A DNA stretch of 64,000 nt from an uncultured Alphaproteobacteria bacterium (GTDB taxonomy: Bacteria; Pseudomonadota; Alphaproteobacteria; MPNO01; DASWLB01). The stretch lies in contig CAWGHZ010000007.1 in NCBI GenBank assembly GCA_963822575.1, positions 1,375,655 through 1,439,654 on the forward strand, in the 5' to 3' direction. Under the pieces are notes generated by a model. That model was not told the origin of the DNA and searched no databases. It saw only the letters and a program-made list of their open reading frames with translations. Below, one piece after another: positions 2,976-20,354 of the stretch. Within the stretch, counting starts at the first letter, position 1, and the number at the start of each line of letters is the position of its first letter. A program made the translations under genes and the position numbers.

Positions 2976-3983
2976 ATGTACCGAACGAAGTTGTTGGCCC
3001 TTTGCGCCGCCGCACTGATCGCCACGCCGGCCCTTGCCCAGGAGCCGGCGAAGCTGAAATACGCATCACCCGCGCCGCCGCAGTCGCTGATCACCGTCTG
3101 GGGCGTCGGCCCCTGGCTCAAGGATGTGGTCAAGGAGTCCGGCGGCACCATCCAGATCCAGTCGTACCTCGGCGCCGTTCTCGGCAATTTCAATCAGGTG
3201 CTCGACCGAACCCGGGCCGGCGTCGACGATATCGGCTGGGGTATCCTGGGCCCGTATTCCGGCGAATTCCCGCAGACCGACGTCGCCTCCCTGCCGTTCA
3301 TCGCGCCGGAATCCAAGGCCTCGAGCATCGCGCTGTGGCGGCTCCTGAAGCGGGGCGTGATCAAGGACCAGTGGGACAGGGTGAAGGTGCTCGGCCTGTT
3401 CAACTTCCCGCCCGCGAGCTTCCACTCGAACAAGCCGATCCGCGGCCTCGCCGACTTCAAGGGGTTGAAGATCGGCGTGTCGGTGCGCGTCATCGCCGAG
3501 CTGGTGCGGGTCGCCGGTGCCGCCGCCGTCACCATGCAGCCCTCCGACATGTACCAGGCCGGGCAGCGCGGCGTGGTCGACGGGGTTGCCATCGGCTGGC
3601 CGGCCTTCTACCCGTTCAAGCTGCAGGAAGTGACGAAGTACCATATCGACGGCCCGTTCGGCGGCACGCCGTCGTTCGTCATCATGAACAAGAACTCGTA
3701 CGCCCGGCTTCCCGCCAAGGCGCGCGCCGCCTTCGACAAGCTGGGCGGCGAGACCCTGTCGGCCCACATGGGCGCCACGACCGACAAGATGGACAAGGAG
3801 GGCGAAGCCCGCGTGCGGGCGATGAAGGGTCACGAGTTCTTCACCCTCGCGCCGGCCGAGGAAGCAGCCTGGAAGAAAAAGGCTCAGCCGATCGTCGAGA
3901 AATGGATCAAGGCGACGCCGAACGGCCGCGCCGTCCTCGACGCCTACGAGGGCGAGTACGAAAAGTTGCTGAAGGGCCAGTGA
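2976..3983 (+). CDS. DctP-like periplasmic solute-binding protein, paralog 4
   Basis: Signal peptide MYRTKLLALCAAALIATPALAQE; same motif set. Confidence 0.8.
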   Translation: MYRTKLLALCAAALIATPALAQEPAKLKYASPAPPQSLITVWGVGPWLKDVVKESGGTIQIQSYLGAVLGNFNQVLDRTRAGVDDIGWGILGPYSGEFPQTDVASLPFIAPESKASSIALWRLLKRGVIKDQWDRVKVLGLFNFPPASFHSNKPIRGLADFKGLKIGVSVRVIAELVRVAGAAAVTMQPSDMYQAGQRGVVDGVAIGWPAFYPFKLQEVTKYHIDGPFGGTPSFVIMNKNSYARLPAKARAAFDKLGGETLSAHMGATTDKMDKEGEARVRAMKGHEFFTLAPAEEAAWKKKAQPIVEKWIKATPNGRAVLDAYEGEYEKLLKGQ

Positions 3984-4006
3984 CGCGGCGCGCCCCTGCC
4001 GTCATC

Positions 4007-4036
4007 GCGACCCTCGGGCCACGGCCTGAGGGTCGC
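4007..4036. terminator. 9-bp stem hairpin (GCGACCCTC...GAGGGTCGC) between convergent genes; possible bidirectional terminator
   Basis: Inverted repeat read directly; no U-tract. Confidence 0.35.
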
Positions 4037-4043
4037 GAATTCG

Positions 4044-5657
4044 CTAGGCCGTCCCGAGCGGCAGGGGGCTCGATTCCGACTGGTCGATCATGGCGTGGGC
4101 GAGACGCTCTGCCATTTCGCCGCGCACGTCGCGGTGGGCCGGGTCGTCCCACAGATTGACCTTCTCGTCCGGGTCGTTCGCGACGTCGTAGAGTTCTCCC
4201 CACGCCTCGCCGCGATAGATGGTCATCCGCCAGCGTCGCGTGATCAGCGAGCGCATGGCGAGGATGCCAGCCCTGCCCATGAACGGCCGCTGCGCGCCGT
4301 ACTCGACGATGATGCCGTCGTGCCCCTCGGCGTCCTCGCCCGCGATGGCGGGGACGAGGCTCCGCCCCTGGATGCCGTTGTACGGCTCGAGCCCCGACCG
4401 GTCGAGATAGGTGGCGGCGAGGTCGAGCGTGCCGCAGAGCGCGTCGCTGGTGGCGCCCGCGCGGTTCGCCAGCGCGGGATCGGCCCAGAGGAACGGCACC
4501 TGCACGAGCCCGCGATTGGCGAACGAGCCTTTCAGCATCAACTGGTGGTCGCCCATCAGGTCGCCGTGGTCGGAGGTGAAGGCGACGATCGTGTCCCCCT
4601 CCAATCCCAACGCACGAAGCTTGGCGAGCACCGTGCCGATCGCGTCGTCGACCAGCGTGATCATGCCGTAGGTCAGCGCCAGCGCCTCCTTCGTCTCCTC
4701 GGCGGTCACCGCGAAGGCCGCCTGCGCCTTGGCGAAGCGCGTGCCGTCGTCGCGCTGGGCATGGAGCCATGCCTCCTGCGGCGTCGGCCGGCCGTTTCCG
4801 AGGTCGAACGCGGAGGGCAGCGGCATGTCCTTGGGGTCGTACATGTCCCAGTACTTGCCCGGCGGGGTGAACGGGTGGTGCGGGTCGTTGAACGAGCATT
4901 GGATCATGAAGGGCCGCGACCGGTCGGACTTCGCCCAGTCATCGAGGATCGCGTTGGTGCGCTCGGCGATGAACGTCGTCGGGTAGAGCTCGACGGGCAC
5001 CGCGGTGCGCCAGGCCTGCGGCACGGTCATATTGTTGCCGGGAAGCTGGTTCTCCGGCCCCATCAGCGCGCGCATGTTGGAATGCCGCGCCTCGGCCCAG
5101 CGCAGATAGTCGCCATGGCAGAGATCGCCGTGCCCGTCGCACAGCTCCACCCGCTCGAACCCGTAGAACGGCAGGCGCATGCGGTGCGCCGTGTCCGCCC
5201 AGCGCGACGGGATCTCCTGCTCGTAGCCGGCGGGATCGTCGTCGTCGCGCAGCGCCTCGCGCAGCCCTTCAGGCGGCGGCGCCTTGCCCTCCTTCCCCCA
5301 CTCGCGCTTATAGGCGGGCGGCGGGCCGACCATGTTCTGGATATGGCTCTTGCCCACCAGCGCGGTGCGCCAGCCGGCGACGCGCATCAGCTCGACGAAC
5401 GTGTTGGCGCGGAGCGACAGCGCGAGGCCGTTATGCCGCACGCCGTGCAGCGAGGGCAGCCGTCCGGTCATCAGGGTCGCGCGGTTCGGCTGGCATACCG
5501 GGCTCGCTACCGTGAAGCGGGTGAACCGGACGCCCCTCGCCGCGATGGAATCGATATTCGGCGTGCGGACGATTGGATTGCCCGCGCAGGCGATGTGATC
5601 GGCGCGCTGCTGGTCGGTGATGAACAGGAGGAAGTTCGGACGCTCGGACGTGGCCAT
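4044..5657 (-). CDS. Sulfatase (arylsulfatase family), no signal peptide
   Basis: N-terminal LLFITDQQRAD and C-x-P-x-R formylglycine motif (SPVCQPNRATLMTGR); 537 aa. Confidence 0.85.
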   Translation of the reverse strand: MATSERPNFLLFITDQQRADHIACAGNPIVRTPNIDSIAARGVRFTRFTVASPVCQPNRATLMTGRLPSLHGVRHNGLALSLRANTFVELMRVAGWRTALVGKSHIQNMVGPPPAYKREWGKEGKAPPPEGLREALRDDDDPAGYEQEIPSRWADTAHRMRLPFYGFERVELCDGHGDLCHGDYLRWAEARHSNMRALMGPENQLPGNNMTVPQAWRTAVPVELYPTTFIAERTNAILDDWAKSDRSRPFMIQCSFNDPHHPFTPPGKYWDMYDPKDMPLPSAFDLGNGRPTPQEAWLHAQRDDGTRFAKAQAAFAVTAEETKEALALTYGMITLVDDAIGTVLAKLRALGLEGDTIVAFTSDHGDLMGDHQLMLKGSFANRGLVQVPFLWADPALANRAGATSDALCGTLDLAATYLDRSGLEPYNGIQGRSLVPAIAGEDAEGHDGIIVEYGAQRPFMGRAGILAMRSLITRRWRMTIYRGEAWGELYDVANDPDEKVNLWDDPAHRDVRGEMAERLAHAMIDQSESSPLPLGTA

Positions 5658-5778
5658 GATGCTCCCCTTCGGTTATGGGACGATAACCGGCGGCGCGGCC
5701 GGGAACAACGGCGCCGCTGCCCTTCCACACTTCGGCCAACAATGCGATAACCGCGGCGAGGCAAGGAGGGAGGGTCGC

Positions 5779-6570
5779 ATGCTCGAGCTCTATCACCACG
5801 GCACGTCGGTCTGCGCCGCCAAGATCCGCATCGCGCTCGCCGACAAGGCGCTCGACTGGAAGGGCCACTACATCGACATCCTGGCGGGCGACCAGCTCAA
5901 GCCCGAATATCTCAAGATCAACCCCAAGGGCGTGGTGCCCACCCTGGTGCATGACGGGCACATCGTCCGCGAGTTGACCGTGATCGGCGAATATCTGGAC
6001 GACGCGTTCCCCGACAAGCCGCTCAAGCCCGCCGCCGCGCTCGACCGTGCCGCCATGCGCATGTGGACCAAGCGCCTGGATGAGGAGCTGCACCCGGCCA
6101 CCGCCATCGTCACCTTCGCCGTGTCGCACCGCCACGCGGTGCTCGCCAACCCACCGGCGGTGATCGACGAGTACGTCAACAAGTTCGGGCCGGCCGAGGC
6201 GTTGCGCCGCCGTGCGCGGCTCGAGCGCGGTATCGACAGCCCGGAGGCCGCGCCGGCGATCCGCACCTACGACAAGTTCCTCGCCGACATGGAGACAAGC
6301 TTGGCCGAGCGCGGGCCGTGGCTCGCCGGCTCCACCTTCTCGCTCGCCGAGACGGGGGTGATCCCCTACGTCAACCGGCTCGACATGCTGCAGCTTTCCG
6401 GCATGTGGACCGAGAAGCGCCCGCACCTCACCGACTGGTGGGCGCGCGTCAAGACGCGTCCGTGGTTCGAGCGCGAGATGCTCAGCTACGCGCCGGCACC
6501 CCTGCGCGCCATGATGAAGGAGAAGGGCGACGAGGCCTGGCCGACGGTGAAAGCCATCCTCGCCGCGTAA
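5779..6570 (+). CDS. Glutathione S-transferase family protein
   Basis: ATG 5779 preceded by AAGGAGGGAGGG RBS; N-terminal MLELYHHGTSVCAAKIRIAL thioredoxin-like GST fold. Confidence 0.8.
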   Translation: MLELYHHGTSVCAAKIRIALADKALDWKGHYIDILAGDQLKPEYLKINPKGVVPTLVHDGHIVRELTVIGEYLDDAFPDKPLKPAAALDRAAMRMWTKRLDEELHPATAIVTFAVSHRHAVLANPPAVIDEYVNKFGPAEALRRRARLERGIDSPEAAPAIRTYDKFLADMETSLAERGPWLAGSTFSLAETGVIPYVNRLDMLQLSGMWTEKRPHLTDWWARVKTRPWFEREMLSYAPAPLRAMMKEKGDEAWPTVKAILAA

Positions 6571-6583
6571 CCGCGTCGCCGCG

Positions 6584-6760
6584 TTACGGCACGACGCTCG
6601 AAACCTGGTCGGCGGCGTAGGTAAACAGCCGCGCGATCGATGTGCCCATCGCGGACGCGGCGCCGATGATGCCGACCGAAACCAGGACAGCGATCAGGGC
6701 GTACTCGATCGCCGTCGCACCCTCTTCGTCGCGCCAGAGACGCCCGATTGCCCTTGCCAT
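6584..6760 (-). CDS. flp: Flp/Fap family type IVb pilin (58 aa, below ORF-track cutoff)
   Basis: Translation MARAIGRLWRDEEGATAIEYALIAVLVSVGIIGAASAMGTSIARLFTYAADQVSSVVP contains the Flp motif (E-G-ATAIEY-ALIA); GAGGAGACC RBS before ATG. Confidence 0.85.
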   Translation of the reverse strand: MARAIGRLWRDEEGATAIEYALIAVLVSVGIIGAASAMGTSIARLFTYAADQVSSVVP

Positions 6761-6809
6761 GCCGGTCTCCTCAGGCTGGTCACCCGGGACGAACCGTAGC
6801 GCCGCCGGA

Positions 6810-6825
6810 TTAACCGAACGTTCAC
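6810..6825. promoter_or_regulatory. Candidate CtrA-type box TTAA-N7-TTCAC about 50-65 bp upstream of the Flp pilin start
   Basis: TTAACCGAACGTTCAC approximates TTAA-N7-TTAAC; Flp pilin genes are CtrA-regulated in Caulobacter. Confidence 0.25.
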
Positions 6826-6885
6826 GAGAACCGGCGGGTTCGAACGAGAACCCTGCCGAATTCGAACCTTCGGCGCGCGCCGGCG

Positions 6886-7272
6886 TCAGTCCTTGGCGGC
6901 GATGGCCTCGACCTCGATCTGGTACTCGGGCCGGGCGAGGCGGCTCACGAACAGCAGCGTCGAGGCCGGCACGTTGCCGCCGAACGCCTGCTTCTGGATC
7001 GACCGCCAGCTATCCATCTGAGCGGGGTCGAGGAGGAAGGTCGTCACCTTGACTACGTTCGACCAGTCCATACCGCATTCCTTCAGCACCTGGGTGATGT
7101 TTGCATAGACCTGCCGCGCCTGGGTGGCGAAGTCTGACGAGACCGTGCCGTCCATGGCGCCACCGGTCTGGCCCGCCAGGTGGAAGATGCGGGCGTTGGG
7201 GCCGATCTCGCCGACGTGCGAGAAGCGTCCCTGCGGGTCGTTGACGCCCTTGACGTTGTAGCGCTTGACCAT
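6886..7272 (-). CDS. ridA: RidA/YjgF family reactive intermediate deaminase
   Basis: 128 aa, YjgF-like sequence; strong AGGAGG RBS. Confidence 0.85.
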   Translation of the reverse strand: MVKRYNVKGVNDPQGRFSHVGEIGPNARIFHLAGQTGGAMDGTVSSDFATQARQVYANITQVLKECGMDWSNVVKVTTFLLDPAQMDSWRSIQKQAFGGNVPASTLLFVSRLARPEYQIEVEAIAAKD

Positions 7273-7287: not shown

Positions 7288-8505
7288 TCATTCCGCCGGG
7301 GTGGCCGCGGCGCTGCGTCGGCCCCAGGCGATCTCGTTGCCCGGCGTCGGATCGTGCGGAACCAGCGCCGCGCAGGCAAGCGAGCAGCAGGCGAAGCCGG
7401 CGCCGATCAGGAACACCGCCGACGGCGAGGTCAACCATACGAAGCCGAGCCCCGCCGGCAGTAATACCGCCGCGATGTGGTTGATGGTCGAGCTGACGCC
7501 CGCCGAGTTCGCCATGTCGGCCGGGTCGGCGATCTTCTGGTAATAGGTGCGCACCGCGATCGCCATGGCGAACAGCACGTTGTCGAGGATGTAGAGCCCG
7601 ACGGCGAGCCAGGGCGTCGCCACGAACGCATAGGCGACGAACAGGCCGATCAGCGCGGCGTATTCCACCAACAGCGCGCGCCGCTCGCCCCAGCGGACGA
7701 TCAGCCGCCCCACGTTCGCGCCGAGGAACACGTTGATCGCGTAGTTGGTGAGCAGCATCAGCGTCATCGTGGCGGCGTCGAACCCGAAGCGCTGCACCAT
7801 CAGGAAGGGTGCGAACACGCTGATGATCTGGCGCCGGCCGCCGGAGAGGAAGATCAGCGCATAGAATAGCTTGTAGCGGCTGCGCAGGACCAGCTTGCGG
7901 CTCTGGCGCACCGCGCCCTCATAGCGCGGGTAGAGCGCCCAGGCGGCGAGCGCCACGGCGATCGCGATGGCGCCGCCTGTCAAATAGACGTACTTCATGT
8001 CGAGTTCGGCGACGCGCAGCAGAAGCCAGATCCCGCCGAAGCTCGCCAGCGAGGCGAAGGACGTGAAGCCGATGATCCGGCCCATCGTCTCGGGCGCGCG
8101 CGACTTGTCGACCCACTGGAACACCAGCGACTGGCGGATCGCCTCGAGATAGTGGAAGCCGACCGAGGCGATCAGCGCCACGGTGTAGAGCCCGGCGATC
8201 GACGGGAAGAAGCCGGTGATCGCCGTCCCGAGACCGAGGACGGCGAGCGAGAAATACGCGAGCGCCTGCTCGCGCACGACGAGAAGCACGAGCAGGACCG
8301 AGACCGCGAGCAGGCCCGGGATCTCGCGCACGGTCTGCAGGAAACCGATATCGACACCGTTGAAGCCGATTCGCTCCACCGCGAAATTGTTGATCAGCGC
8401 CTGCGACGTGGCGAGCGCGACGGCCATCGCCACCGACAGCACGTAGAGCAGGACCGACGGGCGGCGCCAGGCCGCCGCGCCGGCCCCGAGAGCTCCGGAC
8501 GGCAT
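7288..8505 (-). CDS. MFS transporter
   Basis: About 12 predicted TM segments; start chosen at ATG (MPSGALG) with GGGAG RBS; track start is TTG. Confidence 0.75.
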   Translation of the reverse strand: MPSGALGAGAAAWRRPSVLLYVLSVAMAVALATSQALINNFAVERIGFNGVDIGFLQTVREIPGLLAVSVLLVLLVVREQALAYFSLAVLGLGTAITGFFPSIAGLYTVALIASVGFHYLEAIRQSLVFQWVDKSRAPETMGRIIGFTSFASLASFGGIWLLLRVAELDMKYVYLTGGAIAIAVALAAWALYPRYEGAVRQSRKLVLRSRYKLFYALIFLSGGRRQIISVFAPFLMVQRFGFDAATMTLMLLTNYAINVFLGANVGRLIVRWGERRALLVEYAALIGLFVAYAFVATPWLAVGLYILDNVLFAMAIAVRTYYQKIADPADMANSAGVSSTINHIAAVLLPAGLGFVWLTSPSAVFLIGAGFACCSLACAALVPHDPTPGNEIAWGRRSAAATPAE

Positions 8506-8639
8506 CGGGATACTCCCGCGTTTCGATAGCAATTCGATATATCTATCGGCGACGCGCCGTCAAGCGCCGCCGTTCGCCGTTGCCACTTGCCGGCGCCGGG
8601 GGATACGATCCCGCCAATCGCCGTATAGGGAGACGAAAC

Positions 8640-10199
8640 GTGCAGCAGGCCGCCCTCAAGTCCCGCATCTCGTGGGATTCCGACAAGTTCCGCCTGCGTC
8701 GCCTAGTCGAGCGCCTGATCGAGCTCGGCGAGGTCGAGGTCCATGACGAGCCCGTCGCGCTCTCCGAAATGAGCCCGATGATCGAGGCGACGACCAAGGC
8801 CCTGCTGTTCCGCAAGGCGGGTCCCGAGGGGCACGAGGTTGCGGCCGCCGTCTCGGCGAGCCGCACGCGCCTCGCCGCCGCGCTCGGCGTGCCCGTGGAG
8901 AAGATGCGCGACGAGTATCTCCGCCGCATGGCGAACCCGCAGAGGACGTTCGAGGTGCCGGGCGACGAGGCACCGGTGCAGGAGATCGTGCTGACCGGCG
9001 ACGATATCGACCTCACCGCCCTGCCCTTCCACGTGCAGCACGAATACGACGGCGCGCCCTACATTTCGTCCGGCGTCGATTTCGTCACCGACCCGGCGAC
9101 CGGCCGGTCGAACGTCGGCTGCCGCAGGCTGATGCTGCGCGGCAAGGACAGATGCGGCTTCAACCTGACCGCGCCGTCCGACCTGCGCCAGATCTATCTC
9201 GGCTGCGTCGAGCGCGGCCAGAAGATGCCGATGGCCTTCACCATCGGCCAGCATCCGATGGACACGATGGCCGCCGCCTCGCGCACCCGCGGCCAGGAGA
9301 TCGAGGCGCTGGGCACCTATCGCGGCGAGCCGCTGCCGCTGGTCAAGTGCGTGACCAACGACATCTACGTGCCGGCCGACGCCGAGATCGTGCTCGAAGG
9401 CTATGCCGACGAGCGCGGCTACATCGACCACGAGGGTCCGTACGGCGAGTACATGGGCTTCTACGGCCCGATGCACGGCGACCCGGTGTTCCACGTGACC
9501 GCCATCACGCGCAGGCGCGACGTGCTCTACCAGTCGATCAAGCACGGCGTCGGCCGCCATCTGGGCGAGTGCGACGGCTCGCCGCTGGGCGGGCTCCAGG
9601 GCGAGGCGCGGGCCTGGACACTCCTGAAGCAGGCGGGGCTCGACCCGGTCGATACCTGCATCGTCGGCGCGTCCGGCGTCGGCCATCACCTGCGCGTCAG
9701 CCTTCGCAAGCACACCGACGGCGACGCGCGCGCGGCGATTGCGGTGCTTCTCGGCAACATTATGACCGCCAAGCATGTGTTCGTGACCGACGAGGACGTC
9801 GACATCCGCTCGAGCGAGCAGATGGAATGGGCCATGTCCACCCGCTTCCAGGCGGACAAGGACATCGTCGTTCTCTCGAACATGCGCGAGATGCCGATGG
9901 ACCCGTCCACCGCGGTGCGCGGCGTCGGCGCCAAGGCCGGGTTCGACTGCACCTTCCCCTTCCCGCGCTCCAAGGCGGTGACCGCGCGCGTGCCCGAGGC
10001 GCCCCGGATCGGCGGGCCGGCGCGCTACCAGAACGTGCGCCAGGCGCTCGAGGAAGGCGGGCCGACGCATTTCGCCCGGCTGATGAGCGTCCTCGGCTCG
10101 CGCGACGGCCGCGAGGTCGTGCTCGAGATCGAGAAGCTGCGCGACGCCGGGCTCATCGACCGCAATTCCGACGGCGAGTATTTCATCAAGAAGGGCTAG
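8640..10199 (+). CDS. UbiD-family (prFMN-dependent) decarboxylase, paralog 1
   Basis: UbiD-like sequence with EGPYGEY motif; GTG start 8640 after GGGAGACGAA; C-terminal extension about 50 aa. Confidence 0.75.
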   Translation: MQQAALKSRISWDSDKFRLRRLVERLIELGEVEVHDEPVALSEMSPMIEATTKALLFRKAGPEGHEVAAAVSASRTRLAAALGVPVEKMRDEYLRRMANPQRTFEVPGDEAPVQEIVLTGDDIDLTALPFHVQHEYDGAPYISSGVDFVTDPATGRSNVGCRRLMLRGKDRCGFNLTAPSDLRQIYLGCVERGQKMPMAFTIGQHPMDTMAAASRTRGQEIEALGTYRGEPLPLVKCVTNDIYVPADAEIVLEGYADERGYIDHEGPYGEYMGFYGPMHGDPVFHVTAITRRRDVLYQSIKHGVGRHLGECDGSPLGGLQGEARAWTLLKQAGLDPVDTCIVGASGVGHHLRVSLRKHTDGDARAAIAVLLGNIMTAKHVFVTDEDVDIRSSEQMEWAMSTRFQADKDIVVLSNMREMPMDPSTAVRGVGAKAGFDCTFPFPRSKAVTARVPEAPRIGGPARYQNVRQALEEGGPTHFARLMSVLGSRDGREVVLEIEKLRDAGLIDRNSDGEYFIKKG

Positions 10200-10328: not shown

Positions 10329-11777
10329 TTGTCCGACTGGAAGCCGGTCTTCTACGTGCTCGGCTGGATGCTGATCGCGCTGGCGGTGGCGATGGCGGTG
10401 CCGACGCTCGCCGACGCGGCGGTCGACAACACGGACTGGCGCAATTTCGCTGCCTCGGGCGCGATGACGCTCGCGATCGGCGGGTTGCTGGTCACCGCCA
10501 ACCGCGCGACAAACATGCGGGTGGGGGTACGCCAGGCCTTCGTGCTCACCACGCTCGCCTGGATGGCGGTGTCGGCCTTCGCCGCGCTGCCGTTCGTGTT
10601 CTCCAACATCAAGCTCGACTACGCCGACGCGTTCTTCGAAGCGATCTCCGGCCTGACCACCACCGGCTCCACCATCCTGATCGGGCTGTCGACCCAACCG
10701 CCCGGCATCCTGCTGTGGCGTTCGATCCTGCAGTGGCTGGGCGGCATCGGCATCATCGCTATGGCGGTGATCATGCTGCCGTTCCTCAATGTCGGCGGGA
10801 TGCAGCTTTTCCGCATGGAATCCTCGGACCGGTCGGAGAAGATCCTGCCGCGCCCGCGCCAGATCGCCGCCTGGCTGTTCTTCGCCTACGTCGGCATATC
10901 CGTGCTGTGCGTCGGGACCTACTGGGCGCTCGGCATGACCTTCTTCGAGGCGATGTGCCACGCCATGACGACCATCTCGACCGGCGGCTATTCCACCTCC
11001 GACGCCTCGTTCGGGTACTTCCAGAACCCGCCGCTCGAATGGGCGGCGGTGGTGTTCATGCTCGCGGGCGGGCTGCCCTTCGTGCTCTATGTCGGGGCGC
11101 TTCGCGGCCGGTTCCGCGATCTCGTCACTAACGCCCAGGTGAAGGGGCTCGTCGGATTCCTGGCGGTGGTCTCGCTCGCCATCGCCTGCTGGCTCGCCAT
11201 CGTGCACCATGCCCCATTCTTGGAAGCGCTGCGCCTCGCCACGTTCAACGTCGTCTCGGTGGTCACCACGACCGGCTATGCCAGCACCGATTACAATAGC
11301 TGGGGCGGCTTCCCCGTGCTGACGCTGCTGCTGCTCAGCTTCGTCGGCGGCTGCGCTGGCTCGACCGCGGGCGGCATCAAGTTCTATCGGCTGCAGGTGC
11401 TGTGGGACATGATGACGAAGCGCGTGCGCCAGCTCATTTTCAGCCATGCCGTCACCACGCCGACCTACGACGGAAGGCCGCTCTCGGTCGAGGTGCGGCT
11501 TTCCATCGGCGTGTTCTTCTTCGTCTACGTCATGACGGTGGTTATCATCGCGGTAGCGCTCGCCGCGCTCGGGCTCGACCCGATCACGGCGTTGAGCGGC
11601 GCGGCCGCCACGGTGGGCAATGTCGGCCCCGGGCTCGGGCCGATCATCGGGCCGGCCGGCACCTACGCCAGCCTGCCCGATGCCGCCAAGTGGCTGATGT
11701 CGGCCGGCATGCTGCTCGGCCGGCTCGAGATGTTCACCGTCCTGGTGCTGATGTCGCCGACGTTTTGGCGCGCCTAA
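10329..11777 (+). CDS. trkH: TrkH/KtrB family potassium uptake protein
   Basis: 482 aa polytopic membrane protein with repeated TTGS/TGG selectivity motifs. Confidence 0.85.
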   Translation: MSDWKPVFYVLGWMLIALAVAMAVPTLADAAVDNTDWRNFAASGAMTLAIGGLLVTANRATNMRVGVRQAFVLTTLAWMAVSAFAALPFVFSNIKLDYADAFFEAISGLTTTGSTILIGLSTQPPGILLWRSILQWLGGIGIIAMAVIMLPFLNVGGMQLFRMESSDRSEKILPRPRQIAAWLFFAYVGISVLCVGTYWALGMTFFEAMCHAMTTISTGGYSTSDASFGYFQNPPLEWAAVVFMLAGGLPFVLYVGALRGRFRDLVTNAQVKGLVGFLAVVSLAIACWLAIVHHAPFLEALRLATFNVVSVVTTTGYASTDYNSWGGFPVLTLLLLSFVGGCAGSTAGGIKFYRLQVLWDMMTKRVRQLIFSHAVTTPTYDGRPLSVEVRLSIGVFFFVYVMTVVIIAVALAALGLDPITALSGAAATVGNVGPGLGPIIGPAGTYASLPDAAKWLMSAGMLLGRLEMFTVLVLMSPTFWRA

Positions 11778-14401
11778 GATCGCGTCTTCGCGCGCGTCTC
11801 GCGGCAGAGCTGCGCCACGGCAGCGTGCAACCGGGCAGCGATGTGCGCCTCGACGTCCGGCCCCGCCCCTGCCCTCAGCGTCGCAGCCGGGATCGGATCG
11901 CCGAACCGCACGCGCAACGGCGCCGGCCATGGGAAATGCCCGGTGCGCGGCATGGAACGGATCGAGCCCTCGATCCAGCACGGCACCACCGCCGCGCCGG
12001 TGTCGATCACGAGCCGCCCGATGCCACGCTGGAACGGCTGGATCTCGCCGTCGGGCGACCGGTAGCTCTCCGGAAACCAGACCAGGATGTGGCCGCGCCC
12101 GAGCATCTCCTTCGCCATGGCGAGGCTCGCACCCGGCGTGCGGTCGTCGACCGGGAACATGCGGACGGGCCGTGCGATCAGCCGTCCGATCGGGCGGAAG
12201 AACACCTGCACCACGTCGGCGCTCCACGCGATGTTCCGCATATGGGCGCGGGTCAGCGCCCCGCCGATGGCGAACGGATCGACGTCCGAGACATGGTTGG
12301 CGGCGATCAGCAGCGGCCCCGCCGTCGGCACCTTGTCGCGTCCGGAGACGCGCAGCCAGAAATAGAGCCGGATCAGCGGCAGGGCGATGGCGTAGAGCGT
12401 CTGTCCGATGGCGCGGACGAAGGCCGATTGCGGCGCGGCCCAGCGCGCGCGGTCGGCCATCAGCGCTTGGCGATAGGCATTCTCGGGGCTTGGCACCGTA
12501 TCGGATGCGGCGCCCGCCGCCACCGCCTCGCGCAGGAGGTCGCGGACGGTGACGGCACGGGCGATGGCGTCCTCGGTCAGCCGAACGCCGAGCCGGTCTT
12601 CGATCTCGAGCCCGAGACCGATCCACGCCAGCGAGTCGATGCCGAGGTCGAGCTGCGGTGTGGTGTCGGGCGTGACGACATGGCCGGGAAAGCGCGATTT
12701 CAGCCAGTCGAGCAGCTTGGCCGCAACCGGATCGGCGAGCAGGGCGCGGTCCGCTTCCGTCAACGGCGGCGCGACCGATGGCTCGGCGCGTTGTGCGCGG
12801 GCGTAGATCGCGGGCAAGGCGAAGCGCTGCAGCTTGCCGAGCCGCGTGCGCGGCAGTCGCTCGCGGGTCAGGGCGAAGCGCGTCACCCGCTCGTGGCTCG
12901 GGAGCGTCCGCGACACCTCGCCCAAGGCGACCCGCACCATGTCCTCGATGCGCCCGCCGCCCTCTTGTCTGACGACATCGAGCTCGGGCACGACCAGGGC
13001 GGCGAGCGCGTCGCCGTCTTCGACCACGGCGATCTCCCGGATCACCGGGCGCGTCGCGTAGGCGCGCTCGACATCCTCCGGCGAAAGCTTCTTGCCGCTG
13101 GCGGTGACGATCACCTCCTTCACGCGCCCGACGATGTGGAGGAACCCGTCCCCGTCGATCCGCCCCACGTCGCCGGTGCGGAACCAGCCGTCATGGAACG
13201 CGGCGCGGTTGGCCGCCTCGTCGTCCCGGTAGCCGGCGAAGATCAGCGGCCCCGCGATCTCGATCTCGCCGGTGCCAGGCTCGTCCCAGCCCTCGGCCGG
13301 TTCGATGCGCAGCCGCGTGTGCGGGGCGGGCTCGCCGGCGGTGCCGGGCCGCGGCCGGCCCGGCCGCTCGAACGTCGCGATCGAGGCGGTCTCGACGAGC
13401 CCGTACCCGTTCAGCACCTCCCAGCCGAGCCCTTCAAGGCGGAGGGCGAGTCCGGCGTCGAGCTTCGCCCCGCCGGACGCCAGAAGCCGCAGCCGCGGCC
13501 CGAGGCGCGCGTGCAGGGCGCTGAACAGAACCTTACCGACGCGGCGCCCTGTGCGTCTTCGGATTGCGATCGAAAGCGCGAGCAGCGCGCGGAAGCCGAG
13601 CCGTGCGGCGCGCCCGCCGGTCCGCACCCGCGCCGCGATGCCGTCGTACAGGGCTGCATAGAGGCGCGGCACGCCGACCATCACGCTGACTTCGCCCTCG
13701 GTCAGGGCGCGCGCCAGCTCCGGCCCGCTGACTCCCGCGGGCAGCACGACCGGGATGCCGGCGGCGAGCGGCACCAGGAGTTCCACGATGAAGGGATAGG
13801 CGTGGTAGAGTGGCAACGGCAGGAGCGCCCGGTCGTCGGGCCGGACCAGCCCGATCTCCAGCAGCGCCTCGACGTTGCAGAGGATGTTGCGATGACTGAG
13901 CGGCACGGCCTTGGGCAGCCCCGTGGTCCCCGAGGTGAAGAACAAAGCTGCCACTTCGTCGGGCGCGGGCGTCGCGACCGCTGCCAAAGGCGCGCCGTCC
14001 AGCGCCGCGTCGCCGAGCACGAGTATCTCCGCCTCCGGCATGGCCTCGGTCACGCGCGGCGCCAGCTCCGCGTCGGCGAACACTCGCCGCGCTTGGCCGA
14101 GCGCGAGGGCGTGGGCGACCCGCTCGCCGCGCCACTCCGGATCGAGATGCACGGCGACCGCGCCCATCGTCGCCAACGCGAGCCGCGCGACGATCCAGTC
14201 GACCGAGTTGGCGCCGAACAGCCCGACCGCCTCATTCGCCGTCACGCCACGCGCCGCAAGGCCGCCGGCGAGCCGCATCGACCGTCCCGCCAGCGCCGCA
14301 AACGACACGGCCGGCATCCCATCGTGTTCGAATGCGACCAGCGCCGGCGCTTCGCCCCGCGCCACCAGCCCCGCCACCAGCCTGCTCAATGTCTCGGTCA
14401 C
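11774..14401 (-). CDS. Tri-domain fusion: acyl-AMP ligase (AMP-binding) / carrier (PP-binding) domain / PlsC-type lysophospholipid acyltransferase
   Basis: N-terminal FFTSGTTGLPKAV AMP-binding motif; central LGIDSL phosphopantetheine site; C-terminal NHVSDVD (HX4D) acyltransferase motif; GTG start with GGAAGGTGG RBS. Confidence 0.8.
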   Translation of the reverse strand: MTETLSRLVAGLVARGEAPALVAFEHDGMPAVSFAALAGRSMRLAGGLAARGVTANEAVGLFGANSVDWIVARLALATMGAVAVHLDPEWRGERVAHALALGQARRVFADAELAPRVTEAMPEAEILVLGDAALDGAPLAAVATPAPDEVAALFFTSGTTGLPKAVPLSHRNILCNVEALLEIGLVRPDDRALLPLPLYHAYPFIVELLVPLAAGIPVVLPAGVSGPELARALTEGEVSVMVGVPRLYAALYDGIAARVRTGGRAARLGFRALLALSIAIRRRTGRRVGKVLFSALHARLGPRLRLLASGGAKLDAGLALRLEGLGWEVLNGYGLVETASIATFERPGRPRPGTAGEPAPHTRLRIEPAEGWDEPGTGEIEIAGPLIFAGYRDDEAANRAAFHDGWFRTGDVGRIDGDGFLHIVGRVKEVIVTASGKKLSPEDVERAYATRPVIREIAVVEDGDALAALVVPELDVVRQEGGGRIEDMVRVALGEVSRTLPSHERVTRFALTRERLPRTRLGKLQRFALPAIYARAQRAEPSVAPPLTEADRALLADPVAAKLLDWLKSRFPGHVVTPDTTPQLDLGIDSLAWIGLGLEIEDRLGVRLTEDAIARAVTVRDLLREAVAAGAASDTVPSPENAYRQALMADRARWAAPQSAFVRAIGQTLYAIALPLIRLYFWLRVSGRDKVPTAGPLLIAANHVSDVDPFAIGGALTRAHMRNIAWSADVVQVFFRPIGRLIARPVRMFPVDDRTPGASLAMAKEMLGRGHILVWFPESYRSPDGEIQPFQRGIGRLVIDTGAAVVPCWIEGSIRSMPRTGHFPWPAPLRVRFGDPIPAATLRAGAGPDVEAHIAARLHAAVAQLCRETRAKTRS

Positions 14402-14513
14402 GCCACCACCTTCCGGCGCTGTTCTACTTCAGTTGCCTTTACGCGTCATTGCACGGCGAGAAGGGCGGAATCGCCCGGATGACAACGCCCCCGAGTCCGG
14501 CTAAAGAGGCGGG

Positions 14514-15408: not shown

Positions 15409-15645
15409 ATGAGCGATACGGCTGAGCGCGTGAAGAAGATCGTCGTGGAGCACCTCGGCGTGGACGAATCGAAGGTCAGCGAGAACGCGAGCTTCATCGA
15501 CGATCTGGGGGCCGACAGCCTGGATACCGTCGAGCTGGTCATGGCGTTCGAAGAGGAGTTCGGCTGCGAGATTCCGGATGACGCCGCGGAGAAGATCCTG
15601 ACGGTGAAGGACGCCATCAACTTCATCGAGGCGCATGCGGCTTGA
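15409..15645 (+). CDS. acpP: Acyl carrier protein
   Basis: 78 aa, [20 protein letters not shown]. Confidence 0.95.
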
Positions 15646-15693: not shown

Positions 15694-16959
15694 ATGAGAC
15701 GTGTCGTCGTCACCGGCCTCGGAATGGTCACGCCGCTGGGGTCGGGTGTGAAGGCCACGTGGGAGCGGCTGATCGACGGCCAGTCCGGCGTGCGCGCGAT
15801 CCAGTCGTTCGACGTCACCGATTTGCCGTCCAAGATCGCCGGCCAGGTGCCCAAGGGCGACCAGTCGGCCGGGCTGTTCAACTCCGACGACTGGGTGCCG
15901 CCGGCCGAGCGGCGCAAGATGGGCGAGTTCGTGCTCTACGCCGTCGCCGCCGCGACCGAGGCGCTCGCCGATTCGGGCTGGACGCCGGCGAGCGAGGAGG
16001 ACCGCGAACGGACCGGCGTGATGATCGGCTCGGGCATCGGCGGGCTCCCCGAAATCTATGACGGCTCGATCATCCTGCACGAGCGCGGACCGCGCCGCAT
16101 CACACCCTTCTTCATCCCGGCGAGCCTGATCAATCTCGCCTCGGGCCATGTCTCGATCAAGTTCGGCCTCAAGGGGCCGAACCATTCGGTGGTCACCGCC
16201 TGCTCGACCGGCGCGCACGCGATCGGCGACGCGACGCGGCTGATCCAGCTCGACGATGCCGATGTGATGGTCGCGGGCGGCACCGAGGCCGCGATCTGCC
16301 GGCTGGGCGTCGCGGGCTTCGCCGCCGCCCGGGCGCTCTCGACCGGCTTCAATGACGAGCCGGAGCGCGCCTCGCGCCCGTGGGACAAGGACCGCGACGG
16401 GTTCGTCATGGGCGAGGGCTCGGGCATCGTGGTGCTCGAGGAGTTGGAGCACGCGAAGAAGCGCGGCGCCAAGATCTATGCCGAGGTGATCGGCTACGGG
16501 CTCTCGGGCGACGCGTTCCACATCACCGCCCCCGCGCCCGACGGCAATGGCGGGTTCCGCTCGATGAAGGCCGCGCTCAAGCGCGCCGGGCTCAACCCCG
16601 ACGACATCGACTACATCAACGCGCACGGCACCTCGACGCCCAAGGGCGACGAGATCGAGCTGGGCGCGGTGAAGCGGCTGTTCGGCGACGCGGCGCACAA
16701 GCTCTCGATGTCGTCGACCAAGTCGGCCATCGGCCATCTCCTGGGCGCGGCGGGCAGCGTGGAGGCGATCTTCTCGATCAAGGCGATCGAGAACGGCGTC
16801 GTGCCGCCGACGCTCAACCTCGAGAACCCGTCCGAGGGATGTCAGGACGTGGACCTCGTGCCGCTCGCCGCCAAGGAGCGCAAGGTGCGGAACGCGCTCT
16901 CCAACTCGTTCGGGTTCGGCGGCACCAACGCCACGCTGATCTTCACCGCGGCACCGTAG
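15694..16959 (+). CDS. fabF: 3-oxoacyl-ACP synthase II
   Basis: 421 aa KAS II; active-site region VVTACSTGAHAIG; follows acpP. Confidence 0.9.
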   Translation: MRRVVVTGLGMVTPLGSGVKATWERLIDGQSGVRAIQSFDVTDLPSKIAGQVPKGDQSAGLFNSDDWVPPAERRKMGEFVLYAVAAATEALADSGWTPASEEDRERTGVMIGSGIGGLPEIYDGSIILHERGPRRITPFFIPASLINLASGHVSIKFGLKGPNHSVVTACSTGAHAIGDATRLIQLDDADVMVAGGTEAAICRLGVAGFAAARALSTGFNDEPERASRPWDKDRDGFVMGEGSGIVVLEELEHAKKRGAKIYAEVIGYGLSGDAFHITAPAPDGNGGFRSMKAALKRAGLNPDDIDYINAHGTSTPKGDEIELGAVKRLFGDAAHKLSMSSTKSAIGHLLGAAGSVEAIFSIKAIENGVVPPTLNLENPSEGCQDVDLVPLAAKERKVRNALSNSFGFGGTNATLIFTAAP

Positions 16960-16972
16960 CCGCCGCGCCGCC

Positions 16973-17953
16973 GTGCGCGCCTCCCGCCTCGCCGCCTGGA
17001 CCGTTGCCCTGGTCCTGCTCGCCGCGCTCGGCGCAGGCGCGTGGGGCTGGTACGACTACACGCGCCCGGGCCCGCTCGCCCAAAGCCGCACCGTCATCGT
17101 GCCCAAGGGCGTGGGGCTCGACACGATCTCGCGCCTCCTCGCCGAGAAGGGGATCGTCCGCCACGCGACGGTGTTCGTTCTCGGCGCGCGCGCGACCGGC
17201 ACCGCCCGCAAGCTGCGCGCCGGCGAGTTCGCCTTCGCGCCGCACGCCAGCATGGATGCGGCAGCGCGCCACCTCGCCTTCGGCCAGCCGGTCATGCGCA
17301 AGTTCACCATCCCCGAGGGCGAGACCACGCCCGAGGCGCTCGCCCGGCTCGCCGCCGCCGCCGGGCTCGAGGGCACGGCGCCCCAGGATGTGGCCGAAGG
17401 CGCGCTGATGCCCGAGACCTACCTCTACACCTGGGGCGACGAGCGCCCGGCGCTGGTCGCGCGCATGCGCCGCGCCATGCGCCGGACGCTCGACAAGCTG
17501 TGGTCCGACCGCGCCTCCAGCCTTGCCATCGCGTCCGAGCATGACGCGCTGGTGCTCGCCTCGATCATCGAGAAGGAGACGGCGGTCCCGGCGGAGAGAC
17601 CGATGATCTCCGCCGTGTTCCAGAACCGGCTGCGCAAGGGGATGAAGCTGCAATCCGACCCGACGGTGATGTTCGCTCTCACCCACGGTGCGGGGCGGCT
17701 CGACCGGAAGCTGAGCCACGCCGACCTCGAAACCAATTCGCCCTACAACACCTATCGCGTGACGGGCCTGCCGCCCGGACCGATCGGCAATCCCGGCCGC
17801 GCCTCGATCGAGGCGGCGCTGCATCCGGCGGAAAGCGACGCGCTCTACTTCGTCGCCGACGGCACGGGCGGGCACGTCTTCGCCAAGACCCTCGCCGAGC
17901 ACAACCGCAACGTCGCCCGCTGGCGCAAGATCGAGGAGCAGAAGAAGCCGTAA
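16973..17953 (+). CDS. mltG: Endolytic murein transglycosylase MltG (YceG-like)
   Basis: GTG start; YceG-like C-terminal region (QSDPTVMFAL, YNTYRVTGLPPGPIGNPG). Confidence 0.85.
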   Translation: MRASRLAAWTVALVLLAALGAGAWGWYDYTRPGPLAQSRTVIVPKGVGLDTISRLLAEKGIVRHATVFVLGARATGTARKLRAGEFAFAPHASMDAAARHLAFGQPVMRKFTIPEGETTPEALARLAAAAGLEGTAPQDVAEGALMPETYLYTWGDERPALVARMRRAMRRTLDKLWSDRASSLAIASEHDALVLASIIEKETAVPAERPMISAVFQNRLRKGMKLQSDPTVMFALTHGAGRLDRKLSHADLETNSPYNTYRVTGLPPGPIGNPGRASIEAALHPAESDALYFVADGTGGHVFAKTLAEHNRNVARWRKIEEQKKP

Positions 17954-18822: not shown

Positions 18823-19711
18823 TTGACCGTCGCCAGCATGACCGGATTCGCCCGCGCCGAGGGATTCCAGGACGGCTATGCCTGGTCGTGGGAGATCCGC
18901 AGCGTCAACGGCCGCAACCTCGACGTCCGCGCCAAGCTTCCGCCCGGCAACGAGGCGCTGGAGATGAAGGCGCGCACGCTCTGCGCCGAGCGCTTCCGCC
19001 GCGGCTCGATCTCGCTCACCTTGAACCTCACGCTGCACCGAACGGGCCGCTTCCGTACGGGTCAACCGCGATGCGCTCGACCGCATGGTGGCGCTGGCCC
19101 GCGAGGTCGGCGCCGGGATCGGCGCGCCGCCGCCCCGCATCGAAGGCCTCCTGGGGCTTTACGGCGTGGTCGAGCGCATCGAGGAGGAGGAGACCGAGGA
19201 CGTCCGCGCGGCGCGCGAGGCGGCCATGGAACGGACGCTCGCCGACGCGCTCGATGCGCTCGCCCGCATGCGCGCGGACGAGGGCGCGCGGCTCCACGAC
19301 ACGGTGGCGGGCCACCTCGCCCGTATCGCCGCCCTGGCCCAGGACGCCGCCAAATCCGCCGCCGCCCAGCCCGAGGCGCTGAAGCGCCGGCTTGCCGAGC
19401 AGGTCGCGGCGCTCCTGGACGCGCGCGTCGGCGTTTCGGAGGAGCGCCTGGCGCAGGAGGCGGCGCTCCTCGCCACCAAGGCCGACGTACGCGAGGAAAT
19501 CGACCGGCTCAACGCGCACGTCACCGCGGCGCGCGAGCTGCTCGCCGCCGGCGAGGCGGTCGGGCGGCGGCTCGACTTCCTGTGCCAGGAGTTCAACCGC
19601 GAAGCCAACACGCTGTGCTCGAAAGCGACCGATATTGACCTCACCCGCATCGGGCTCGACCTCAAGGCGTCGATCGAGCAGCTCCGCGAGCAGGTCCAGA
19701 ACATCGAGTAG
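18823..19711 (+). pseudogene. yicC: YicC-family stress-induced protein; frame broken by two apparent single-base deletions at C/G homopolymers near 19040-19065
   Basis: YicC N-domain in frame 1 and DUF1732 C-domain in frame 2; the third frame reads HPNGPLPYG across the junction, implying CCC->CC and GGGG->GGG. Confidence 0.75.
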
Positions 19712-19715
19712 CGCC

Positions 19716-20354
19716 ATGCCGTCCGACCCCATCGCCCGCCGCGGGCTCATGCTGGTGCTGTCCTCACCCTCGGGCGCAGGCAAGACCACCATCTCGCGCG
19801 CACTGCTCGAACGCGACCCGACGCTGGAGATGTCGGTCTCGGTGACCACGCGCCCGCGCCGCCCCGGCGAGAAGGAGGGGCGCGACTACTACTTCATCGA
19901 TCCGACCGAGTTCGCCCTGATGCGCAACCGTCAGGAGCTGCTCGAGCACGCCAAGGTGTTCGACCACTATTACGGCACGCCACGCGCGCCGGTGGAGGAC
20001 GCCATCGCACGCGGGCGCGACATCGTGTTCGACATCGACTGGCAGGGCACCCAGCAGCTCAAGCAGACCGCGCGCGACGACCTCGTCAGCGTATTCATCC
20101 TGCCGCCCTCGACCGCCGAGCTGGAGCGGCGGCTGCAGACCCGCGCGCGGGACCCCAAGGACGTGGTGGCGCGCCGCATGGCCAAGGTGGTGGACGAAAT
20201 CAGCCACTGGGCCGAGTACGACTACATCATCGTCAATCGCGACGTGGAGGAAAGCGTGCGCCACGTCGAGGCCATCGTCACGGCCGAGCGCCTGCGCCGC
20301 GAGCGCCAGACCGGCATCACCGATTTTGTCGCACGGCTGCGCGAGGGACAGTAG
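19716..20354 (+). CDS. gmk: Guanylate kinase
   Basis: P-loop SSPSGAGKTT; conserved yicC-gmk order. Confidence 0.9.
   Translation: MPSDPIARRGLMLVLSSPSGAGKTTISRALLERDPTLEMSVSVTTRPRRPGEKEGRDYYFIDPTEFALMRNRQELLEHAKVFDHYYGTPRAPVEDAIARGRDIVFDIDWQGTQQLKQTARDDLVSVFILPPSTAELERRLQTRARDPKDVVARRMAKVVDEISHWAEYDYIIVNRDVEESVRHVEAIVTAERLRRERQTGITDFVARLREGQ

Follow-up and report, generated by a model that had tools for sequence, protein, structure and literature searches.

The question raised by this locus is what a single polypeptide that joins a fatty-acid ligase, a carrier domain and a PlsC-type acyltransferase might do, and whether its position beside fatty-acid synthesis genes bears on the answer. The gene lies in a 64,000-nucleotide stretch of DNA from an uncultured alphaproteobacterium (hereafter, the window). 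An earlier note had described the product as a fusion divergent from fabG-acpP-fabF, had proposed intramolecular channelling of an activated fatty acid to a lyso-lipid acceptor, and had given weight to the location of the gene "where fabD normally sits". The features considered are:

11774..14401, minus strand: complete coding sequence of the 875-aa ligase-carrier-acyltransferase protein; GTG start at 14401-14399, TAG stop at 11776-11774
13229..14356, minus strand: adenylation (AMP-binding) N-terminal core, residues 16-391 (Pfam E 6.9e-65)
12800..13117, minus strand: adenylation C-terminal subdomain, residues 429-534, with the A10 lysine K523 (Pfam AMP-binding_C / AMP-binding_C_3)
12506..12757, minus strand: carrier (PP-binding/ACP-like) domain, residues 549-632; codon of the phosphopantetheine serine S590 at 12632-12634
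11777..12487, minus strand: PlsC/LPLAT-type acyltransferase domain, residues 639-875, with N-terminal helices, H703/D708 (HX4D; His codon at 12293-12295), FPVDDR, FPESYRSPDG and VVPCWIEG
10329-11777, plus strand: trkH, convergent, overlapping the stop of the 875-aa gene by 4 nt (context only)
14402..14513, no strand: divergent intergenic spacer of 112 bp between the 875-aa gene and fabG; blocks TTGTCAT and CAACTGAAGTAGAA kept in the window, L001 and L002
14514-15251, plus strand: fabG (NCBIfam equivalog match above cut-off; context only)
15409-15645, plus strand: acpP (NCBIfam equivalog match above cut-off; context only)
15694-16959, plus strand: fabF (NCBIfam equivalog match above cut-off; context only)
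16973-17953, plus strand: mltG (NCBIfam equivalog match above cut-off; context only)

The gene was confirmed as one 875-aa ORF, on the minus strand and divergent from fabG-acpP-fabF across the 112-bp spacer: its composition is of coding type (GC3 0.89) and a Shine-Dalgarno sequence, GGAAGG, stands 7 nt 5' of the GTG start. A larger ORF on the opposite strand (1026 aa, 11402..14482) has no Pfam match and was rejected as a high-GC shadow ORF. The Pfam scan that the earlier note had called for placed all four domains above their gathering scores, including AMP-binding (PF00501; 219.7 bits against a cut-off of 29.9), PP-binding (PF00550; residues 574-624, E 8.1e-7, 29.6 bits against a cut-off of 20.8) and Acyltransferase (PF01553; residues 684-810, E 2.3e-18), and with the motifs it establishes the three-module architecture and its integral carrier serine as real. 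The motifs FTSGTTGLPK (A3), GYGLVET (A5), FRTGD (A7), GRVKE (A8) and LPRTRLGK523 (A10), whose cores are invariant across the family, place the protein, together with the PF00501 score, in the ANL superfamily. The carrier motif, LDLGIDS590L, provides the serine of the conserved (D/H)S(L/I) pattern, where helix II of a four-helix bundle begins, and NH703VSDVD708 (the HX4D catalytic dyad, motif I), with FPVDDR, FPESYRSPDG, VVPCWIEG and a PlsC fold, identifies the last domain as an LPLAT/AGPAT (PlsC-type, PF01553) acyltransferase.

The adenylation domain contains a ~45-residue helical insert (about residues 253-300) of the long-chain acyl-CoA synthetase/FadD11 type, which the FadD11 model spans in one unbroken match (30-476). 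Its best models are long-chain fatty-acid ligases (PRK06187 at 1.6e-65), suggesting that the domain belongs to this type and that its substrate is a fatty acid. Foldseek matched it to ANL ligases at E about 1e-38, with McyG A-PCP and LgrA modules among the matches. The full-length AF2 model has a pLDDT of 90.9, and the carrier and acyltransferase are predicted to form one confident unit, a defined didomain (pLDDT 95, pTM 0.83). No transmembrane-like segment was found in the protein, as would be expected of an enzyme that, like Aas, is peripheral (PMC11416262).

The architecture is common and not a singular fusion, with more than 2000 database homologues and 229 clusters at 50% identity that reach E<=1e-30. 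Sources name the family only as 'AMP-binding protein' or 'long-chain acyl-CoA synthetase', and no curated NCBIfam model was found that covers ligase-carrier-acyltransferase proteins. By sequence the family is related to ElbD but lacks the reductase, and its many uncharacterised members are mostly alphaproteobacterial, at least one being from a cyanobacterium. Across 113 full-length homologues (43-100% identity), K164, E337, D411, R426, K523, D589-S590-L591, H703, S705, D708, P750, F776-P777-E778, R781 and P783 are kept in 112-113, the A10 lysine K523 in all 113, and this retention of the catalytic residues of every module indicates that the three modules are under selection together. Motif III departs from the canonical FPEGTR: the family has FPE-[S/E/G]-[W/Y]-RSP (FPESYRS in the 875-aa protein), in which F-P-E and R are invariant and Gly-Thr is replaced by S/E/G plus W/Y, with Gly in only 16 of the 113, so that the acceptor may differ from LPA or lyso-PE.

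The arrangement seen in the window, with trkH convergent and fabG-acpP-fabF-mltG divergent, is confined to relatives of 81-83% identity (L001-L003). Nine more distant members, comprising eight full-length proteins (about 35-49% identity to the 875-aa protein or its ACP-AT part) and P0159, all lie in unrelated neighbourhoods with no fab or acpP adjacency. The fab adjacency is a local quirk of one clade, and the mechanism proposed below does not depend on the fab genes nearby; the spacer itself (14402..14513) has no match to a sigma-70 consensus. The P0159 fusion (L100) comes from a 3x-coverage long-read contig, gave no PP-binding domain in the scan, and could be a frameshift artefact. At one locus of about ten independent contexts, the gene of a homologue of ~41% identity (L004) stands divergently beside a gene for an LplT-type lysophospholipid transporter (PRK06814 N-terminus 4.3e-104; LplT 2.4e-33). 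No lplT match was found in the window, where an MFS gene at 7288-8532 does not match the LplT model.

E. coli Aas, a peripheral, bifunctional acyl-ACP synthetase and 2-acyl-GPE acyltransferase that works with free holo-ACP, consists of a transferase (1-203) followed by a synthetase (204-719) (PMC11416262). In both Aas and the 875-aa protein, one peripheral polypeptide carries an ANL fatty-acid ligase together with an HX4D acyltransferase, and motif I is near-identical (NHVSFID in Aas, NHVSDVD here); unlike Aas, the 875-aa protein has the reverse order, ligase-carrier-transferase, and a carrier covalently built in, as the earlier note had read from the sequence and Pfam confirmed. It thus lacks the Aas architecture of N-terminal transferase and C-terminal synthetase with no carrier of its own, and its scores fall far below the Aas equivalog cut-offs (PRK08043, 886 bits; PRK08633, 1221 bits): PRK08633 gave 175.3 bits with the whole protein and 63.7 bits with the C-terminal ACP-AT segment alone, and PRK08043 gave 22.6 bits with that segment. 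For the acyltransferase domain, Aas-type models outscore those of generic AGPAT and PlsC, the best curated model being PRK08633 (positions 416-588, E 7.1e-18, versus 7.7e-10 for generic AGPAT). The LplT-Aas fusions (PRK08633/PRK06814, about 1140 aa, MFS-AT-ligase), themselves uncharacterised (PMC11416262), match this domain with their transferase part and also match the ligase domain, but the 875-aa protein has no MFS domain, the opposite order and an added carrier. One family member adjoins an LplT-type gene, as noted for L004, whereas no lplT adjoins the gene in the window. PlsC (T. maritima structure 5KYM) stands alone and uses soluble acyl-ACP or acyl-CoA; its canonical FPEGTR is altered in the 875-aa protein, with which E. 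coli PlsC shares marginal sequence similarity (E 0.01). NRPS/PKS A-T loading didomains and FAAL-ACP loaders likewise adenylate a substrate and then form a thioester on a fused carrier, but here the downstream partner is a PlsC-type membrane-lipid acyltransferase and not a condensation or ketosynthase domain, and the A domain is of the long-chain acyl-CoA-synthetase type.

The whole module has a counterpart in ElbD of Myxococcus xanthus, an ether-lipid biosynthesis protein with FAR, acyl-CoA-synthetase-like, ACP and AGPAT-like domains (PMC9131029). Its ligase and ACP activities were confirmed in vitro, according to the summary of Lorenzen 2014 given in PMC9131029, and acyltransferase activity could not be shown for the isolated protein (PMC9131029). 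We used two metagenomic ElbD-type proteins, L017 (1472 aa) and L020 (1591 aa), as proxies for M. xanthus ElbD, and tblastn recovered a collinear ligase-carrier-acyltransferase module over query residues 41-872 and 17-843, respectively, with about 25-33% identity. ElbD-type proteins were the best non-family match for all three domains: the A domain is 33% identical (E 8e-77) and scored 254 bits in BLASTP versus 105-108 against EcAas and EcFadD, the ACP domain is 37% identical versus 27% for AcpP, and the AT domain scored 63 bits versus 42 against EcAas and 26 against EcPlsC. The A3-A5 spacing, 176 residues, is identical in the 875-aa and ElbD-type proteins. On these comparisons, the closest relatives found, domain by domain, are ElbD-type proteins and not Aas, FadD or PlsC, and the 875-aa protein reads as an ElbD-type ligase-ACP-acyltransferase module without the reductase. 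ElbD also purifies as a soluble protein (PMC9131029), in keeping with the lack of a transmembrane-like segment here.

On this evidence as a whole, we consider it probable that the protein is an acyltransferase that is self-contained and activates fatty acids at the expense of ATP, with an internal carrier, a lyso-glycerolipid acceptor and a role in salvage. Through its A3 P-loop and its A10 lysine, K523, the N-terminal ANL domain would convert a free long-chain fatty acid to the adenylate. Rotation of its C-terminal subdomain would follow, and the phosphopantetheine thiol on Ser590 would receive the acyl group in place of CoA or free ACP. The carrier would dock on the adjacent PlsC-fold acyltransferase, and there, on the cytoplasmic side of the inner membrane, the His703/Asp708 dyad would move the chain onto a hydroxyl of a lyso-type glycerolipid. 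Lysolipids would in this way be rejoined with free fatty acids, in membrane repair or remodelling, with the acyl-ACP synthesis pool left untouched. By analogy with Aas, the acceptor would most likely be a lysophospholipid; lysophosphatidate, G3P or DHAP is less likely. The intramolecular channelling suggested by the earlier note is thus plausible, given the family-wide conservation of catalytic residues and the confidently modelled ACP-AT unit, but the weight that it placed on the fabD position is not supported.

The altered motif III hints at a non-canonical acceptor, and the salvaged fatty acid might instead be passed to a lipid other than a glycerophospholipid, examples being lyso-ornithine lipid, intermediates of lipid A or glycolipids, and other lipids with a hydroxyl or amino group. 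We regard this as unlikely, since in structure and sequence the AT domain best matches PlsC, GPAT and the transferase of Aas, none of the genes flanking it in the window is one for acylating ornithine lipid or lipid A, and the P0159 fusion, given its 3x-coverage long-read contig, could be an artefact. About equally doubtful is that the two halves act independently, the ligase making acyl-CoA or loading free AcpP, the transferase using soluble acyl-ACP or acyl-CoA, and the carrier being structural or regulatory. In its favour, acyl-CoA ligase models give the A domain its highest scores, the window clade has acpP at a distance of 1 kb, and E. coli Aas works with free ACP (PMC11416262). Against it, the DSL serine of the carrier is invariant (113/113), virtually every full-length relative keeps the carrier domain, carrier and acyltransferase are modelled together as a defined didomain, and acpP adjacency is absent from the distant orthologues examined.

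The similarity to ElbD raises a further alternative, that the protein is an ether-lipid enzyme whose acyl-S-carrier or acyltransferase would feed an alkyl-DHAP synthase route with acyl-DHAP or acyl-G3P, the reductase acting in trans. ElbD-type proteins share the order of its entire A-ACP-AT module and are its closest match (28-33% identity), and in the Elioraea clade (L007, L011) the family gene is followed by a HAD-family hydrolase gene, elbB also being HAD-like (PMC9131029). We nevertheless judge this reading improbable. The N-terminal fatty acyl reductase that defines ElbD (NAD_binding_4 plus Sterile), present in L017 and L020, is absent from the 875-aa protein, leaving it with no route to an aldehyde or alcohol, and motif III of its family is FPE(S/E)W/YRSP in place of the FPEG(T/G)R of ElbD. 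Unlike in the elb operon (elbB HAD, elbE epimerase), the neighbours in the window are trkH and fabG, with neither elbB nor elbE among them, and no FAR, AGPS or ElbE-type epimerase gene adjoins the gene there or in the other contexts examined. FAR-less ElbD-like homologues have already been mentioned (PMC9131029) without a demonstrated link to ether lipids, and Pontiella has elbD homologues but no detectable ether lipids (PMC11868695).

Finally, the gene might replace, or be linked to, the missing fabD of a fabD-fabG-acpP-fabF cluster. The absence of fabD from the window was upheld: tblastn with authentic E. coli FabD matched nothing at E<=1, either in the window or within the 10-kb flanks of L001-L003, and GHSLGE is absent from every frame of the window; in the L001-L003 clade the gene does occupy the position upstream of fabG. 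A relation to FabD is not supported and replacement is most improbable: the gene runs opposite to the fab genes, its transferase shows the PlsC fold and HX4D in place of the FabD fold and GHSLGE and has no detectable similarity to FabD, and its orthologues beyond the 81-83% relatives have no fab linkage. Since type II fatty-acid synthesis cannot proceed without malonyl-CoA:ACP transacylase activity, fabD is expected elsewhere in the genome.

These results have a bearing on how ether-lipid capacity is estimated. In environmental surveys, BLAST matches at E<1e-30 and at least 30% identity are counted as 'ElbD homologues' and taken as evidence of ether-lipid capacity (PMC11868695); with an A domain as close to ElbD-type proteins as that described here, the FAR-less family would probably pass these thresholds and could inflate such estimates, for example among Proteobacteria. 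More tentatively, we suggest that the FAR-less family is a self-sufficient enzyme of lysolipid re-acylation and fatty-acid salvage that has its own carrier, is independent of AcpP, and serves as a functional alternative to Aas and LplT-Aas in mostly alphaproteobacterial lineages, perhaps with a non-canonical acceptor and, in the window clade, co-regulated with the fab genes through the shared divergent promoter region. Such an enzyme would be a natural membrane-lipid acyltransferase fed by a covalently attached carrier, and a compact system in which to study carrier delivery to a PlsC-type enzyme. Defining its acceptor would give a widespread family, now filed under generic names, a place in membrane-lipid salvage or remodelling in these lineages.

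The minus-strand ORF at 11774..14401, which encodes the 875-aa ligase-carrier-acyltransferase protein, is a genuine gene, with a coding-type codon-position composition (GC1/2/3 = 0.75/0.52/0.89) and a ribosome-binding site (GGAAGG) 7 nt ahead of its GTG start. Since the window's G+C content is ~69%, long spurious ORFs are common; a 1026-aa plus-strand ORF (11402..14482) is not a gene and has zero Pfam matches, in contrast to the strong ones of the 875-aa protein. A Pfam scan of the latter gave all domains in order, supporting both the carrier and the acyltransferase domain and bearing out the three-part fusion proposed in the earlier note:

Residues 16-391: AMP-binding (E 6.9e-65)
Residues 429-534: AMP-binding_C
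Residues 574-624: PP-binding, the carrier (E 8.1e-7)
Residues 684-810: Acyltransferase, PF01553 (E 2.3e-18)

The two motifs that note had cited, the LGIDSL carrier serine and HX4D, are present as LGIDS590L and NH703VSDVD708, together with the ANL core motifs A3, A5, A7, A8 and the A10 lysine, K523. The domain order is, as also proposed, the reverse of that in E. coli Aas, where the transferase (1-203) is followed by the synthetase (204-719) (PMC11416262).

No exact copy of the protein was found in a look-up in the contig collection, and a genome-collection scan with it as single query returned three close and two distant relatives. A search of 5.8 billion proteins (E<=1e-10) gave 2297 matches. 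The top 120, at 43-83% identity, share the protein's architecture and length (~860-900 aa); those with a stated source or organism are alphaproteobacterial (Limimonas halophila, Elioraea tepidiphila, Kiloniellales MAGs), and their sources call them nothing more specific than ‘AMP-binding protein’ or ‘long-chain acyl-CoA synthetase’. An exhaustive HMMER search with the carrier-transferase half alone found 229 clusters (50% identity) at E<=1e-30, and the majority of the matches listed are full-length proteins of ~870-900 aa; one cluster of the family includes a member from the cyanobacterium Trichormus. Among 113 full-length members, the catalytic residues of all three modules are each kept in 112 or 113: in the ligase, the A3 P-loop (K164), E337, D411, R426 and K523; in the carrier, D589-S590-L591; and in the transferase, H703, S705, D708, P750, F776-P777-E778, R781 and P783. 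Motif III of the transferase is family-specific, reading FPE-[S/E/G]-[W/Y]-RSP-x-G in place of the canonical FPEGTR. All NCBIfam matches fall far under the curated cut-offs, indicating that no curated family covers the protein, and literature searches on the architecture returned no paper on the family. No characterised enzyme is known to have exactly this architecture.

Two relatives depart from the common form. One (locus L018, 7064-9319), from a 30% GC genome, is a shorter, 751-aa ligase-carrier-acyltransferase protein whose match to the AMP-binding profile lacks ~86 positions at the start, and an IS605 OrfB/TnpB-type gene (5664-6920; OrfB_IS605 and a Cas12f1-like TNB domain) lies immediately upstream. 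The other, P0159 (L100, 4132-7575), has 1147 aa and carries a Lip_A_acyltrans domain (LpxL/PatA-type, PF03279) C-terminal to its ligase and acyltransferase; the domain scan listed no PP-binding match, and on this long-read contig of 3x coverage a frameshift may have joined two neighbouring genes.

The nearest relatives found outside the family are proteins of the type of ElbD, the myxobacterial ether-lipid enzyme. A metagenome scan with the family alignment, which was keyed on generic A-domain motifs, returned ordinary AMP-binding proteins at 77 of 80 loci; the useful ones were L018 and two (L017, 1472 aa; L020, 1591 aa) encoding proteins of ElbD architecture, a fatty acyl reductase (FAR; NAD_binding_4/Sterile) followed by AMP-binding, PP-binding and Acyltransferase domains, with an ElbE-like epimerase near the L017 protein. 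In domain-wise BLASTP, every domain of the 875-aa protein was nearer these ElbD-type proteins than the E. coli enzymes: the ligase (33% identity, 254 bits, vs 108 bits for FadD and 105 bits for Aas), the carrier (37% identity, vs 27% for AcpP) and the transferase (63 bits, vs 42 bits for Aas and 26 bits for PlsC). The A3-to-A5 spacing is 176 residues in both, including a ~45-residue helical insert. The closeness of each domain and the equal spacing indicate, at the level of sequence, that the ligase-carrier-transferase unit is one evolutionary module common to ElbD and this family, which has the module minus the reductase. The ligase and carrier activities of ElbD have been confirmed in vitro, whereas its transferase activity could not be shown, and the ElbD-like proteins of other phyla, which are unstudied, ‘almost all lack a FAR1 domain’ (PMC9131029, a review of myxobacterial plasmalogen synthesis).

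Our data suggest a scheme in which fatty-acid activation is followed by passage through the enzyme’s own carrier to a lyso-glycerolipid, and we regard this general outline as moderately probable. A free long-chain fatty acid would be adenylated, the acyl group would be moved onto the phosphopantetheine at Ser590, and the His703/Asp708 dyad would then transfer it, on the inner side of the membrane, to a lyso-type glycerolipid hydroxyl. Directly supported are the domain assignments and folds, the conservation within the family and its homology to the ElbD module, for which the first two of these steps have been demonstrated; the route of the acyl group inside the enzyme, its use of fatty acids, the acceptor and the role in the cell we infer. 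We weakly favour a lysophospholipid acceptor, in Aas-like repair or remodelling. Compared with Aas, the protein has a permuted order and a built-in carrier, but its NHVSxxD motif and model scores are similar: the best model for the transferase half was PRK08633, the transferase segment of LplT-Aas fusions (E 7.1e-18), ahead of generic AGPAT (7.7e-10), E. coli-type Aas (2.8e-5) and OlsA (0.022). A single genomic linkage also points to lysophospholipid: in an uncultured Rhodospirillales MAG (L004), a gene for an LplT-type lysophospholipid transporter (872-2719, minus strand; PRK06814 N-terminal part, E 4.3e-104; LplT PRK11195, E 2.4e-33) is divergent from a 41%-identical homologue (2369-4951, plus strand). 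A long plus-strand ORF at this locus (836-4984) is a shadow-ORF artefact. Moreover, an enzyme that lacks a reductase has no other obvious use for the carrier-bound acyl group than to transfer it.

An ether-lipid role is a much less probable alternative, which kinship with ElbD brings to mind; the missing reductase distinguishes the family from that enzyme. In the Elioraea-type clade, genes for a 206-aa HAD-family hydrolase and a UPF0114 membrane protein lie downstream and co-directional (L007, 10657-11808; L011, 8649-9803), and ElbB of the elb operon is likewise HAD-like (PMC9131029). An acceptor other than a glycerolipid is a second, likewise improbable alternative. The altered motif III leaves room for some acceptor besides lysophospholipid, making that preference weak; PDB sequence and Foldseek searches with the whole protein were dominated by ANL ligases and returned nothing on the acceptor. 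Third, the two catalytic halves could act independently. AlphaFold2 modelled the whole protein (69-sequence alignment) with a mean pLDDT of 90.9 and a pTM of 0.60, and the carrier-transferase half with 95.0 and 0.83, values that predict a defined mutual arrangement of the carrier and transferase domains. Intramolecular channelling, as put forward in the earlier note, is a reasonable but unproven idea. The enzyme is expected to be peripheral or soluble, as none of its segments has the hydrophobicity needed to span a membrane.

The genes beside the 875-aa protein are arranged as follows:

fabG, acpP, fabF and mltG: plus strand, divergent from it
trkH: on its other side, convergent

This arrangement, divergent from fabG-acpP-fabF as first described, is kept in three MAGs labelled ‘uncultured Alphaproteobacteria’ (L001-L003), whose orthologues are 81-83% identical. 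Within the 112-bp divergent spacer (14402-14513), the blocks TTGTCAT and CAACTGAAGTAGAA are kept in three of the four related genomes (the window, L001 and L002), L003 having an insertion; they may be promoter or operator elements, and the shared spacer may co-regulate the gene with the fab genes. A sigma-70 consensus scan of the spacer gave no match. Members ~35-49% identical to the protein or its carrier-transferase half have unrelated, mutually different neighbours, and no conserved neighbourhood was found across 13 loci; the three local associations noted, with the LplT-type gene, with HAD and UPF0114, and with Lip_A_acyltrans (fused or adjacent in one relative), are each limited to one locus or clade. 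Adjacency to fab genes is therefore a single clade-specific event and does not define the function of the family. The absence of fabD from the window was confirmed by tblastn with authentic E. coli FabD (nothing at E<=1) and by the lack of GHSLGE in every frame, and none was found in the 10-kb flanks of L001-L003. The emphasis earlier placed on the position of fabD finds no support here, and replacement of FabD is effectively excluded by the strand opposite the fab genes, the fold of the transferase and the distribution of family members.

Elsewhere the window holds ordinary genes of the chromosomal core (gmk, rsmA, pdxA, surA, lptD, lptG/F, pepA, H+-PPase). Rfam and tRNA scans of the whole window gave zero matches. 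Other features of the window are:

603-3983, plus strand: three tandem paralogous DctP-type (TRAP transporter) solute-binding protein genes
7288-8532: MFS transporter gene, rejected as LplT (zero LplT-model matches)
8580-10199 and 34874-36601, plus strand: two UbiD-family decarboxylase paralogues <25 kb apart, the first flanked by the MFS gene and trkH
19392-20354, plus strand: guanylate kinase ORF
45208-48840, minus strand: low-GC island (0.545 at 46-48 kb vs ~0.69 elsewhere) with polysaccharide-type genes, for a DegT/EryC1 aminotransferase, a small methyltransferase and a Polysacc_synt_3 flippase
48359-50005: GT4 glycosyltransferase, next after the flippase ORFs
50146-51309, minus strand: radical SAM gene, divergent from a Memo-like gene (51321-52130, plus strand; cf. 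AmmeMemoRadiSam systems)

The island is probably an O-antigen/EPS segment gained by horizontal transfer, and its flippase is seemingly split into overlapping ORFs (47048-48181 and 47896-48840), a possible frameshift. In the guanylate kinase ORF, ~119 residues precede the Pfam domain (120-298) and close relatives match only residues 109-320, which makes it probable that translation begins downstream of the TTG start listed.

Together, the 875-aa protein is a straightforward variant of two known kinds of enzyme: ElbD without the reductase, or a permuted Aas with an integral carrier. Databases contain many proteins of this architecture, and ElbD homologues without FAR have already been noted in print (PMC9131029). 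Although unsurprising in principle, the family merits biochemical characterisation, and it matters for environmental surveys that count ‘ElbD homologues’ (PMC11868695).
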